From the IMG/VR virus record IMGVR_UViG_2721755725_000012: a stretch of DNA of 49,338 nucleotides; one strand, written 5' to 3'. Origin of the DNA: a virus. Taxonomy: Duplodnaviria; Heunggongvirae; Uroviricota; Caudoviricetes. Made by a program: the position numbers. How positions within the stretch are numbered: position 1 is the first letter of the stretch; each line of letters begins with the position of its first letter. Shown piece after piece: positions 42,001-48,000 of this stretch.

Positions 42001-45000
42001 AATATTCAGAACTGTGGCTGCGCATACGGGCCACCAGCAAAGGCGGCATCGCCTTTTCGATCGCCGGTAACAGAGCCTGCATTTTTTCAACAGCATCAGG
42101 GGTGTCTTTATCCAGCCAACGGAAAATTTTCTGGGTATTACGGGCCAGGGCTTCCGGATGGCTGTCGTCATACAGTTCCGGGAACGTCATTCCCAGCTCG
42201 AAATACGCTTTGGTAATTTTCGCAGCCGGTACTTTTTCGCCGTCCGGATGCGCCCAGACATTCATCGCCATGCGGATGTGTTCATGCTTGATTTTCATGA
42301 ATCAACTCCATCAGATAAGCATGCACTACAATCACCTTCAGCATGAACTACATGTGTTTGCCCCAAACGAATGCCGCTCGCATACTCAGGCCAAATAAGC
42401 TCCCAATCATGGGGTCGTAGCTCCGCCCTACTTACTTGGCCTTCCGTCGCAGATTCGATCATAAGGGCGCGGGTTGGAGATATAGCTGTTCGTCCAGACG
42501 CCATTTGCGATAAGTAAGATGACGATACACCAAGTCTGGCCGCGAATTTCTTAGCATCACCAACCCTTAATGATTTAATAAACTCTTTTAATGTCATACC
42601 TTCCTCGGTTTAGTGTTTTTTTGCGAGTTTAGTGTTTAATAAACCATTAAGTCAAGTATTTGCTTGTTTAGTGATTACTAAAGATAATTACCACATGCAA
42701 AAAAAAGAAATTCGCCGTTTACGTCTCAAGGAGTGGTTTAAAGATAAAACTCTGCCACCCAAAGAGAAGAGCTACCTATCTCAACTAATGAGTGGGAGAG
42801 CCTCGTTTGGAGAAAAAGCTGCCAGAAGAATAGAGCAAACATACGGGATGCCGGAAGGGTATCTGGATGCGGAATACGCAGAACAACCGGGGGTTTCTCC
42901 ACCACATGCAGGGTTAACGTCTAATCAACTGGAATTATTGCAGATTTTTTCAGCCTTCCCTGAGGATGAGCAACGCCAGATAATCAGCGAGTTAAAGCAG
43001 AAAAAAGAATCAATGGAAGATCTCATAGCGAGATGGATTGCGGCGCAAAAATGCCGCCGCGCCTGAGTTATAAAACCGGAGGAAACATGAATAGAGCCCT
43101 TTCACCAATGGTTTCTGAATTTGAAACCATTGAACAAGAAAACAGTTACAACGAATGGCTGCGTGCGAAAGTAGCAACGAGCCTTGCAGATCCGCGCCCA
43201 GCAATTCCCCATGACGAAGTTGAGCGCAGAATGGCAGAACGCTTTGCTAAGATGCGCAAGGAACGGAGCAAGCAGTAAAATGTTACCCGTGTTATGGCTT
43301 GAAAGCGCAGATACCGACCTAGATGATATAACTAGTTATATTGCTCGTTTCGACATAGATGCGGCTGAACGCTTATGGCAGCGATTAAGGGGTTGTGTGC
43401 TGCCGTTATCCGAACATCCGTATTTATACCCACCAAGCGACAGAGTACCTGGCTTGCGTGAGATTGTAGCCCACCCTAACTATATAATTCTATACCGCGT
43501 AACAACATCAAGCGTTGAAGTAGTAAACGTGATCCACGCAAGACGCCAGTTTCCCTAACTTTCACTACCAATAGAAACATAACAACCGCAACGACTTTAT
43601 CAAAAGCGTTGTGTTTGTTATGTCCCGCGGTTTAGTTTTTACTTGACTTAAGTTTAATGTTTATTAAACTAAAAATACCAACCCACCCCGCCCCACAGAA
43701 CGCAGGGAAATACTTCGAGTTACCCGGCAGTGGTCAGGGGTTAAGTATCCAGCCCGAGGCGTATGAACATGACGGCAGGGTTCAACTTTAATAACTATGC
43801 AGCAGGTTTTTGTTCCGCTACCCCGGCGTTAAGGGGAAACAGAGGGTTTCTCAGTGGGCGAAGTCAAACATCAGAATGGAAGGCATCCCGGGATCGGCAA
43901 AGAAGCAGCAATGGCGCTTTATATTGACATCAGCGCCATTGCAGGACAGGTAAGAGTTATCAGAGCGGTAACTAAGCGGTATGCGCCTTTACTTCAGAAA
44001 GTCTCTGGTGAGTGCACCGAAGATATTGTCAACGATTTCGTCATCGAACTGCGAGGACTCATCTTCAGTTTACAAGGTGAACCACAATTTTTGCAGATGG
44101 CTCCCGCGAAACTGTCAGAGCCCTGCGGCTTAAAGGATGTGTCAAAGACTTCGCCACCACATTCTGGGCAAGAAAACTTGATTGTATTCATAACCAATTT
44201 CCTCTCGAGTAACAGACCCCTCAGAGGATACCACCTCGCCTGACGTGGTTAAAAGCAGGCAACGCTAACCACAAGGAGCCGACATGCAGAAACGAGAACC
44301 CGTCATCATCGCGCCAGACTATACCGATGATGAACTTTATGAGTGGATGCACCAGAAAATTAATGCAGCGCAGGATCTGAAATGGGCCAATGAAGCCAGG
44401 GCTAAGCAGGCTGAAAATCTGTCCGCTCTGGAGCAGGATATCACCAATCTGGAAAAAGCAGCGGCATTAAGCATTGCCAGAATGATTACATACCCGCGTT
44501 AATAGCTAACCAACGAAGCTAAGGTTGGTAATTAAGGAGTTCTCCACGGGTGAGGTGGAGTGCGTGCGCCGGACACGGGTGAGCATACGGCACTGACAGT
44601 TTACTGAAAGGATATTTCCCTGAAAAGTCAGACCATAACGCGAAATGGCGCGGCGGTAAGTATGGAGGGGTTATTCCTTCCCCCGTTGAGGACACCGGGT
44701 TGTCAGGTTGACCATACGCTTAAGTGACAACCCCGCTGCAACGCCCTCTGTTATCAATTTTCTGGTGACGTTTGGCGGTATCAGTTTTACTCCGTGACTG
44801 CTCTGCCGCCCTTTTTAAAGTGAATTTTGTGATGCGGTGAATGCGGCTGAGCGCACGCGGAACAGTTAAAACCAAAAACAGTGTTATGGGTGGATTCTCT
44901 GTATCCGGCGTTAATTGTTAACTGGTTAACGTCACCTGGAGGCACCAGGCACCGCATCACAAAATTCATTGTTGAGGACGCGATAATGGAAACGTTATTA

Positions 45001-48000
45001 CCAAACGTTAATACGTCTGAAGGTTGTTTTGAAATTGGTGTCACTATCAGTAACCCTGTATTTACTGAAGATGCCATTAACAAGAGAAAACACGAACGGG
45101 AGCTATTAAATAAAATATGCATTCTTTCAATGCTGGCCCGTTTACGTCCGATACAAAAAGGATGCTGGCAATGAATACAGCATTTGCACTTGTTCTGACA
45201 GTTTTTCTTGTTTCCGGAGAGCCAGTTGATATTGCAGTCAGTGTTCACAGGACAATGCAGGAGTGTGTGACTGCAGCAACCGAACAGAAAATTCCCGGTA
45301 ACTGTTACCCGGTCGATAAAGTTATTCACCAGGATAATAACGAAATCCCGGCAGGTCTTTAAAACAGTTCCGTAATAAACATCCGATTTCATTCTTATAT
45401 GCCAGCAATGGCAGGGATTTGTTCACCCTTAAATCTGTAATGAGGTAAAACAAAATGAGTAAAGTCTTTATTTGCGCCGCCATTCCGGACGAACAGGCAA
45501 TAAAGGAAGAAGGTGCCGTCGCTGTAGCCACTGCCATTGAAGCCGGTGATGAACGTCGCGCCCGCGCAAAATTTCACTGGCAATTCCTGGAACATTATCC
45601 GGCTGCTCAGGACTGCGCTTATAAATTTCTTGTTTGCGAGGATAAACCCGGTATACCCCGCCCTGCCCTCGATTCCTGGGATGCTGAATATATGCAGGAA
45701 AACCGCTGGGATGAGGCGTCTGCTTCCTTTGTCCCGGTCGAGACTGAATCAGATCCGATGAACGTCACTTTTGACAAGCTGGCCCCTGAAGTACAGAACG
45801 CTGTCATGGTTAAGTTCGACACATGTGAAAACATCACCGTTGATATGGTGATTAGCGCGCAGGAATTGTTGCAGGAAGACATGGCAACATTCGACGGACA
45901 TATCGTTGAAGCGTTGATGAAAATGCCAGAAGTTAACGCCATGTATCCGGAGCTTAAGCTGCACGCCATCGGGTGGGTTAAGCATAAATGTAAGCCTGGT
46001 GCCAAATGGCCCGAAATTCAGGCAGAGATGCGCATCTGGAAAAAACGTCGCGAAGGTGAACGCAAGGAAACCGGAAAATACACGTCTGTTGTTGATCTCG
46101 CCCGCGCCAGAGCCAATCAACAGAACACTGAAAATTCAACAGGAAAAATCAGCCAGGTCATTGCTGCCACTCATCGCGAATACAAGCAGACATGGAAAAC
46201 ACTGGATGACGAACTGGCCTACGCTCTCTGGCCTGGTGATGTGGATGCCGGAAACATTGACGGCAGCATCCATCGCTGGGCGAAAAATGAAGTTATCGAC
46301 AACGACCGCGAAGACTGGAAGCGTATCTCGGCATCAATGCGCAAACAGCCTGATGCCCTTCGCTACGACCGCCAGACTATTTTTGGCCTTGTCCGTGAAC
46401 GTCCGATCGACATTCACAAAGACCCTGTGGCACTGAACAAATACATTACTGAATACCTGACTACAAAGGGCGTGTTTGAAGATGAAGGAAGAAATCAGAG
46501 CGCAACTGATACTCTCTCGTCGCCAGTACCAGAAACTGATGCAGTGGAAACGGCGATTCCGGACAACGAAAAAACCGAATGCAAAGTGGAAGTCGAAGCA
46601 TCTGTAGAGCGTGAGGGGCCGTTCTACTTCCTCTTCACCGACAAGGATGGCGAAAAATACGGTCGCGCAAACAAACTTTCTGGTCTGGATAAGGCGCTGG
46701 ATGCCGGGGCTACTGAAATCACGAAAGAAGAATATTTCGCCCGCAAAAACAGTACATACTCAGGTTCACAACAAAATACTGGTGCATCTGACACGACCGC
46801 ACAACCAGAGCCGGTAAAAGTTACCGCTGACGAAGTAAACAAAATTATGCAGGCAGCCAATATCAGCCAGCCTGACGCCGATAAGTTGCTTGCTGCCTCT
46901 CGCGGAGAATTTGTTGCAGGGATTAGCGACCCGAATGATCCGAAATGGGTTAAGGGGATCCAGACCCGCGATTCTGTAAACCAGAACCAGCATGAATCGG
47001 AACGGAACTACCAAAAAGCGGAACAAAACAGCCCAAATGCGTTACAAAACGAGCCAGAAACGAAACAGCCTGAACCAGTGGCGCAACAGGAACTGGAAAA
47101 AGTCTGCACCGCCTGCGGTCAGACCGGCGGCGGCAACTGCCCTGATTGTGGCGCAGTGATGGGCGACGCAACATACCAGGAAACATTCGATGAAGAGTAT
47201 CAGGTTGAAGTTCAGGAAGATGATCCGGAGAAAATGGAAGGCGCTGAACATCCACACAAGGAGAACACTGGCGGCAATCAGCATCACGATAGCGATAATG
47301 AAACTGGCGAGACGGCAGATCACTCAATTAAGGTGAACGGTCATCAAGAAATCACATCCACCAGCAGGACGTGTGACCATCTAATGATCGACCTTGAAAC
47401 CATGGGAAAAAATCCTGATGCCCCGATCATCTCAATAGGTGCAATATTTTTCGATCCGCAAACCGGAGATATGGGACCGGAATTTAGTAAGACTATCGAT
47501 CTGGAAACTGCTGGCGGAGTCATTGATCGGGACACCATTAAATGGTGGCAATCACGCGAAGCGCAATCTGCCATTATGACCGATGAAATCCCGTTAGATG
47601 ATGCACTGTTACAATTGCGGGAATTTATCGACGAAAACTCCGGTGAATTTTTTGTTCAGGTCTGGGGAAATGGAGCCAACTTCGACAACACGATTTTGCG
47701 CCGTTCATACGAACGGCAGGGGATCCCCTGCCCGTGGCGTTACTACAACGATCGCGATGTACGCACAATCGTTGAGCTGGGGAAAGCCATAGACTTCGAT
47801 GCCAGAACGGCTATTCCATTCGAAGGTGAGCGCCATAATGCACTTGATGACGCCCGTTACCAGACAAAATACGTTTCAGTTATCTGGCAAAAACTGATCC
47901 CGAGTCAGGCTGATTTTTAATGTTCAACCGTCGCCAGTTGTCGTTGATATTCTGCAACTGGCGCGTTCCGGAGTGATAGCCATGAGCGAACAGTACCTGA

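Follow-up and report, generated by a model that had tools for sequence, protein, structure and literature searches.

The division-inhibition module ydfC-dicF-dicB-ydfD lies at positions 44284 to 45362 of a 49,338-nucleotide (nt) stretch of viral DNA (Caudoviricetes, IMG/VR record IMGVR_UViG_2721755725_000012), which was analyzed as a whole and is called the window below. It is very probably a dicBF-type segment of the PL operon of a CP-933P/Sp12-like lambdoid prophage, located at potC in enterohemorrhagic Escherichia coli (EHEC) O111. A first-pass annotation made from the sequence alone had placed the module here, and its bounds proved to be exactly the ydfC start and the ydfD stop, with all four genes intact. 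The module as such is already known: dicF, dicB and ydfD are textbook prophage division and lysis effectors, and the copy in the window departs from that of E. coli K-12 in minor points only. Multiple dicF copies in EHEC and the control of a CP-933P-type PL by PaaR2 and YdaS have also been described. We infer the function of the module in this O111 strain by homology. Feature coordinates are collected in Table 1.

DicF and its pairing with ftsZ

The whole window was scanned with the Rfam models at their gathering thresholds. The DicF model (RF00039) matched positions 44760-44811 of the plus strand over its full length (model 1-52 of 52) with 76.7 bits (cut-off 48; E 2.8e-15). The 53-nt DicF sequence of E. 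coli K-12 is found in one exact copy in the window, at 44759-44811, and is followed by TTTTT up to 44816. The Rfam search and the K-12 alignment (100% identity in DicF) therefore agree with the first reading of this segment as DicF with its terminator. In the alignment with the Qin prophage of K-12, the interval 44704-44835, which includes the RNase E site region, shows zero mismatches; by this identity the RNase E-generated 5' end of DicF would fall at 44758/44759. A single promoter serves the operon in K-12, where RNase E sets the 5' end of the 53-nt DicF (PMC10448788). Termination yields the 3' end of the 53-nt species, and RNase III cleavage of read-through RNA yields a 72-nt form (PMC5069750).

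DicF pairs through its 3' half with the ribosome-binding site of ftsZ, as compensatory mutations have validated in K-12 (PMC5069750). Divergence at the positions needed for this pairing was looked for and none was found. The ftsZ region from -150 to +60 of the O111:H- strain 11128 is identical to that of K-12, and since both DicF and the ftsZ leader equal their K-12 counterparts, the validated pairing is fully preserved. In addition to this identity check, the pairing energy was computed for the published 3' pairing region. DicF nt 24-53 and ftsZ -29 to -1 gave -27.9 kcal/mol, compared to -19.3 ± 3.5 kcal/mol for shuffled DicF (32 of 2000 shuffles were as good). The duplex energy of the whole DicF molecule with ftsZ was not discriminating, with 133 of 1000 shuffles being as good. 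DicF also represses xylR, pykA and manX (PMC10448788; PMC5069750). In EHEC, where up to four dicF copies are found, it activates pchA and represses stx2A under low oxygen (PMC7873438).

DicB, YdfD and YdfC

The open reading frame (ORF) that follows dicF encodes DicB, as the first-pass annotation had proposed. The predicted protein matches Pfam PF05358 over its full length (residues 1-62 of 62) with 127.4 bits against a cut-off of 27, and NCBIfam NF049927 with 132.7 bits against a cut-off of 100. It is 89% identical to K-12 DicB, and the substitutions are K2E, Q36H, V47L, L55P, M56I, P57Q and A61W. Among species-representative DicB sequences the variation is concentrated in residues 55-61, and residues 1-54 are nearly fixed. 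DicB brings MinC to the septum and, in a further role, blocks phages that depend on ManYZ, a form of superinfection immunity (PMC10448788). No published test of MinC binding was found for this DicB allele.

YdfD matches Pfam PF07358 (DUF1482) with 88 bits against a cut-off of 25 and shares 92% identity with K-12 YdfD; no NCBIfam model matched it. The K-12 protein is annotated as 'lysis protein YdfD' and has a lysis role (PMC10448788). YdfC is 97% identical to the K-12 protein (substitutions R23H and F47S) and has no model in Pfam or NCBIfam. A PADLOC search left YdfC, DicB and YdfD without a match. Two further reading frames, a minus-strand ORF of 201 amino acids (aa) at 44787-45392 and a GTG-extended 97-aa form of dicB, were rejected as mechanical ORFs without support.

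Host prophage and control of the early-left operon

EHEC O111:H-/H8 strains, e.g., strain 11128, carry a prophage with 100% identity to the final 13 kb of the window. The window is a lambdoid prophage of EHEC O111 (strain 11128 type) integrated at potC. In the RefSeq record of 11128 the gene order is ydaT and ydaS, then on the opposite strand a hypothetical protein, a RelB-type antitoxin, a ParE toxin and a frameshifted gene, followed by ydfC, dicB, a DUF1482 protein, exonuclease, excisionase, integrase and then the host gene potC. The feature list of this record, on identical DNA, does not contain dicF, and the practical value of the present assignment lies in the correct annotation of this gene. 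The interval 42200-45460 shares 99.6% identity with a locus of O157:H7 that has the CP-933P-type gene set, and ParE, PaaA2, YdaT, YdfC and DicB have the same accessions in both.

The early-left placement of the module, also claimed in the first-pass annotation, was upheld by primer sequences. The CP-933P primers for paaR2, PR/PRM, the toxin-antitoxin operon and PL933P were taken from the supplement of PMC8630535, and all of them match the window exactly. Therefore paaR2 and the tested PL fragment can be located in the window, with PL pointing at ydfC-dicF-dicB. In CP-933P, PaaR2, YdaS and YdaT are the analogues of CI, Cro and CII (Jurenas et al., PMC8630535). PL933P is repressed about 100-fold by PaaR2 or YdaS, and its -35/-10 hexamers are those of PR (PMC8630535). 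A promoter consensus scan found TTGACT-16-TAAACT at 43643-43670 (+), the -35/-10 of PL, oriented to ydfC; the divergent PR, with the same hexamers, is TTGACT-18-TAAACT at 42655-42626 (-). The PL fragment is identical in sequence to that of the O157:H7 locus examined. Repressor control of the predicted early-left operon is supported by the published CP-933P regulator and PL experiments taken together with the sequence identity of this fragment. The paaR2 product shows weak similarity to the NCBIfam DicA-repressor model. Within the CP-933P-type immunity region (42295-43558) a three-component toxin-antitoxin system sits inside the repressor operon, just upstream of PL. On the plus strand from PL to dicF a simple terminator scan found no terminator-like site; the scan also misses the DicF terminator, whose loop is larger than its limit.

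Loss of an RNase III hairpin upstream of dicF

The spacer between ydfC and dicF is 85 nt shorter than in K-12 and O157, and the alignments place the junction at 44638/44639. The deletion is clean and lies between 7-nt direct repeats (CGCGAAA, at 44639-44645 in the window). In K-12 a hairpin whose stem has about 22 base pairs (bp) is formed by the missing 85 nt (4356-4440 of the K-12 locus sequence) and bases flanking them. RNase III makes a 190-nt DicF precursor in K-12 (PMC10448788); its 5' end, computed from this length and the DicF 3' end, is position 4423 of the K-12 locus sequence, which is in the 3' arm of this hairpin. The sequence panel of the published primer-extension figure (PMC10448788) starts within the deleted segment. 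Two genome-wide RNase III mapping papers do not give the coordinates of the DicF site and merely cite DicF. Because the computed 5' end of the 190-nt species falls inside the missing 85 nt, the RNase III site for this precursor is very likely absent from the window allele. Judged from the alignment, one step of DicF processing in this allele must differ from that in K-12. The predicted fold 3' of the junction is unchanged, and the RNA fold of 44503-44985 has a z score of -4.5.

Of 5426 complete E. coli genomes, only 48 have the exact deletion junction, most of them being O111:H8/NM, and 3639 have the 85-nt segment. The junction count comes from a 40-nt query on which a match to one flank by itself cannot be seeded; it replaced a 56-nt query that was confounded by partial matches to the undeleted alleles. 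A natural deletion of the RNase III hairpin is a ready-made test of the purpose of the 190-nt precursor, which is of modest interest for the biogenesis of small RNAs (sRNAs).

A structured RNA element between dicF and dicB

The dicF-dicB spacer is a structured RNA, supported by covariation and related to STnc100. A perfect 19-bp inverted repeat (44821-44839 and 44950-44968) encloses an interior of 110 nt. The 3' end of the 72-nt DicF form was computed to lie at about 44830, and because it maps inside the 5' arm of this stem, the stem would be the known RNase III site. In a permissive Rfam scan, 44809-45018 aligned to the full STnc100 model (RF02076); the score of 40.1 bits does not reach the cut-off of 47, and E is 2.4e-5 for the whole window. 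Related loci score 29 to 44 bits. The spacer is not filed here as STnc100; it is related to this family in structure and sequence only. K-12 and other Escherichia/Shigella dicB loci give the sub-threshold match in the same place, and kil/kilR is immediately preceded by it in Rac-SA53, vB_EcoS-683R6 and Shigella phage 75/02 Stx. P7 and D6, which are P1-like phages, have it flanked by a tRNA on one side and terB/tciA on the other. PhiR5_2 shares the element by sequence (BLASTN and the ten-sequence alignment) and gave no Rfam match at E ≤ 0.01. The alignment of ten sequences contains 39 consensus pairs, 16 of which have compensatory changes on both sides. Of its cells 95.1% are paired, compared to 33-41% in slid controls, and none of 500 shuffles was as good. 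Rfam matches of the spacer to tsr32 and MIR397 (E 0.36 and 4.8) were discarded as chance.

Thermodynamic prediction gave a probability of 0.03-0.14 for the dicB Shine-Dalgarno sequence to be unpaired in the unprocessed RNA and above 0.9 after the stem is cut. In the unprocessed RNA the predicted partner of the Shine-Dalgarno GAGG (44973-44979) is either CCUC (44745-44748) or the U-rich sequence that follows the DicF terminator. The dicB AUG stays paired in every folding model.

In several lineages of phages the element precedes small genes for division inhibition or host killing, namely dicB, kil, kilR and the P1-type tciA/terB, the last of which are annotated by homology as functioning in tellurite/colicin resistance or division inhibition. 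Upstream of it there is always a small stable RNA (DicF, a DicF-like RNA or a tRNA). Several phage division inhibitors unrelated to one another have the element in front of them, which suggests a leader or processing cassette common to these genes and is of modest interest. Tentatively, and with more doubt than confidence, the spacer might be a diverged and so far unrecognized member of an STnc100/PasD superfamily that acts as a cassette for RNase III processing and translational gating. A cut in the 19-bp stem would then trim the upstream sRNA (giving the 72-nt DicF) and free the dicB Shine-Dalgarno sequence. Because the other RNase III hairpin has been lost, maturation of DicF in O111 would on this cassette model depend on RNase E alone. 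A 2026 preprint ties PasD to STnc100 and does not mention DicF.

Proposed mode of action and alternative explanations

In the lysogen, PaaR2 as the CI analogue would repress PL at 43643-43670. Once repression is lifted, a transcript would run through ydfC and the structured spacer into dicF, where the RNase E cut at 44758/44759 and the intrinsic terminator (44774-44816) would generate the 53-nt, Hfq-binding DicF. Its 3' half would pair with the ftsZ ribosome-binding site and block FtsZ synthesis, as shown in K-12. Read-through RNA would carry the stem-closed structure at 44821-44968, in which RNase III cleavage as in K-12 would produce the 72-nt DicF form; dicB and ydfD, presumably coupled in translation, come next on this transcript. 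DicB would recruit MinC to the septum with the result that FtsZ rings are dismantled, and YdfD could lyse the cells when strongly expressed. The block of host division at two levels upon derepression, which the first-pass annotation had claimed, is supported by homology and by published work on near-identical DNA. That annotation had left out further known roles, i.e., lysis by YdfD, phage exclusion by DicB via ManYZ, and the action of DicF on xylR, pykA and manX and on pchA and stx2.

Several points weigh against a division-inhibiting operon that works here as it does in K-12. Of the 62 DicB residues, 7 are not those of the K-12 protein that was tested, and these differences cluster at 55-61. 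The dicB gene lies behind the DicF terminator and its expression needs read-through. The approximately 600 nt from PL to ydfC run antisense to a frameshifted ORF of the ECs_2282 family, and no antiterminator was identified. Since the RNase III hairpin of K-12 is lost with the 85 nt, the yield of DicF could differ. In EHEC, DicF has been tied mainly to virulence regulation and less to division (PMC7873438).

In an alternative explanation, the selected role of the module in EHEC is mainly something other than division inhibition, and filamentation is an overexpression phenotype only. DicB would then serve to keep ManYZ-dependent phages from injecting their DNA. DicF, present at a low constitutive level or at that of stationary phase, would act on metabolism (xylR, pykA, manX) and on virulence (activation of pchA and repression of stx2 under low oxygen). 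The published immunity via ManYZ and the repression of pykA, xylR and manX (PMC10448788; PMC5069750) fit this explanation, as do the up to four dicF copies of EHEC with pchA activation and stx2A repression when oxygen is limited (PMC7873438). It would also suit the retention of dicF in 73% of the complete E. coli genomes, in up to 7 copies, although the gene is toxic. However, the ftsZ pairing is perfectly conserved, and DicB and DicF each cause filamentation when the K-12 operon is derepressed. We consider such a predominant other role plausible but somewhat less probable than not; it complements the division-inhibition reading and does not exclude it.

A silent, decaying relic of a defective prophage that is never usefully expressed is improbable. 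The IS1203 insertion, the frameshifted gene just upstream of ydfC and the 85-nt deletion in the dicF leader could be taken as signs of decay, and CP-933P has been described as cryptic (PMC8630535). However, the three ORFs are full length, DicF and its flanks are 100% conserved, and the immunity region, PL, exonuclease, xis and int are all intact. The deletion is a clean event between short repeats that leaves the downstream fold unaltered, and the CP-933P switch is bistable (PMC8630535), which means that PL fires in a subpopulation. A chance or superficial resemblance to DicF and DicB is refuted by the Rfam E value, the exact 53-nt identity, the 96-97% identity to Qin over about 1.2 kb and the curated cut-offs that were passed; no point in support of it was found.

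Distribution

In the same set of complete genomes, dicF with its flanks is found in 3975 of 5426 (73%), at 6700 places and with up to 7 per genome. The whole module at ≥80% coverage is present in 2709 genomes and in several sequenced temperate phages. In the data with one genome per species, DicB is confined to Escherichia/Shigella, bar one contig from a metagenome bin labeled 'Veillonella'. A DicF match ends 174 nt upstream of dicB in six of the seven species-representative loci. Five of these six matches are above the Rfam cut-off and one, an E. albertii copy, is below it (43.5 bits). The exceptional contig (JAGZPX010000007.1, 22.9 kb, from a metagenome-assembled genome of 'Veillonella parvula') carries an Escherichia-type dicF-dicB pair, with DicF at 72.6 bits and DicB 85% identical. 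It is most likely a binning contaminant.

Neighboring genes and other features of the window

Antisense to the PL transcript lies a CxxC zinc-ribbon ORF of the ECs_2282 family, which is frameshifted after about residue 37 by 1-nt insertions at 44069 and 44080 relative to O157:H7. RefSeq instead calls a frameshifted gene on the plus strand at 43911-44212. Farther upstream, a sok match (37366-37541) adjoins the insertion sequence (IS) element IS1203. In the related strain E2863 this IS lies directly before paaR2 and the replication genes are missing; the region is thus rearranged between strains. The interval 37929-39564 encodes a 365-aa 'beta family' protein that matches the PADLOC model PD-Lambda-2_C (E 1.4e-40) and, convergent with it, a 192-aa sce7726-family protein that matches the PADLOC model 'cll' (E 2.4e-28). 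This interval may be a partial anti-phage defense cassette carried on the prophage. A cluster of RNA genes in the late region spans 31201-31812 and includes a bona fide STnc100.

Table 1. Features of the module, of the immunity region and of other parts of the window (positions count from the first nucleotide of the window).
Feature	Position	Strand	Remarks
ydfC	44284-44502	+	72 aa, function unknown; RefSeq WP_001171930.1 'protein YdfC'
Untranslated structured spacer before DicF	44503-44758	+	Holds the deletion junction
dicF	44759-44816	+	53-nt sRNA 44759-44811; terminator hairpin 44774-44810; U-run 44812-44816
STnc100-like element	44821-44968	+	In the 174-nt dicF-dicB spacer; outer stem and conserved hairpins
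dicB	44986-45174	+	62 aa, MinC-dependent division inhibitor by homology; Shine-Dalgarno GAGGA 44974-44978; RefSeq WP_000449192.1
ydfD	45171-45362	+	63 aa, DUF1482; start overlaps the dicB stop (ATGA)
PL933P promoter fragment	43559-43676	+	Primers F-PL/R-PL exact at 43559 and 43655-43676
ydaT	41873-42298	-	
ydaS	42295-42597	-	Transcriptional regulator
paaR2	42695-43066	+	CI-like repressor; primers F-PaaR2/R-PaaR2 match at 42695 and 43049-43066
paaA2	43087-43278		RelB-type antitoxin position
parE2	43280-43558		Toxin
ECs_2282-family ORF	43994-44197	-	CxxC zinc ribbon; antisense to the PL transcript
IS1203	36081-37294		IS3 family; ALIL frameshift pseudoknot 36362-36478
AgvB/AsxR-type anti-sRNA	31201-31260	+	56.6 bits, right at the cut-off; strand opposite to STnc100
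STnc100, bona fide	31262-31470	-	Late region; 175 bits
tRNA	31583-31656	-	Late region; Rfam scan
tRNA	31740-31812	-	Late region; Rfam scan

Comparison with known systems

The closest described relative in K-12 is the dicBF operon carried by the cryptic Qin (Kim) prophage, ydfABC-dicF-dicB-ydfDE. The order ydfC-dicF-dicB-ydfD, followed by an exonuclease gene, is the same in the window, and the DNA is 96-97% identical over about 1.2 kb from the ydfC start codon on. Identity is complete or almost complete in DicF, the RNase E region, the terminator and the downstream stem; in the outer stem after dicF the window has two G-C pairs where K-12 has G-U. The homology begins exactly at the ydfC ATG, and ydfA and ydfB are absent from the window. 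In place of DicA the window encodes the repressor PaaR2 (together with PaaA2-ParE2), and in place of DicC it encodes YdaS and YdaT as the Cro and CII analogues. The O111 prophage in this way couples an immunity switch that bears a toxin-antitoxin system to DicF and DicB. Two more differences from Qin are the 85-nt RNase III hairpin, missing from the ydfC-dicF spacer of the window, and the exonuclease, xis and int genes, which are intact in the window and truncated in K-12.

The early-left region of CP-933P/Sp12 in O157:H7 (paaR2-paaA2-parE2, PL933P, ydfC-dicF-dicB) has the same layout as the window, and its primers match. The window differs from the O157:H7 locus in lacking the 85-nt hairpin, in the two 1-nt insertions that frameshift the ECs_2282-family ORF and in a few single-nucleotide polymorphisms. 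The O157 strain that was examined has a truncated exonuclease gene beside an IS1203. The prophage in the window is integrated at potC.

Rac-type prophages and Stx phages (Rac-SA53, vB_EcoS-683R6 and Shigella phage 75/02 Stx) share the arrangement: a DicF-like hairpin with a terminator, the stem-closed STnc100-like element, a small ORF for host division or host killing about 20 nt on, and exonuclease VIII. They differ in that this ORF is Kil/KilR, unrelated to DicB, and in that the DicF-like RNAs are divergent, those of Rac-SA53 (41 bits) and vB_EcoS-683R6 (34 bits) scoring below the Rfam cut-off. Compared to STnc100 (RF02076) and PasD, the dicF-dicB spacer aligns over the full model and shares the closing helix and the near-invariant hairpin CACCnGGAGGCACCnGGCA. 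Four compensatory pair changes distinguish its closing helix from that of the window's own STnc100. The spacer lacks the 3' terminator hairpin of STnc100, and the dicB start takes that position. STnc100 is located downstream of the late-region tRNAs, whereas the spacer is part of the early-left mRNA leader.

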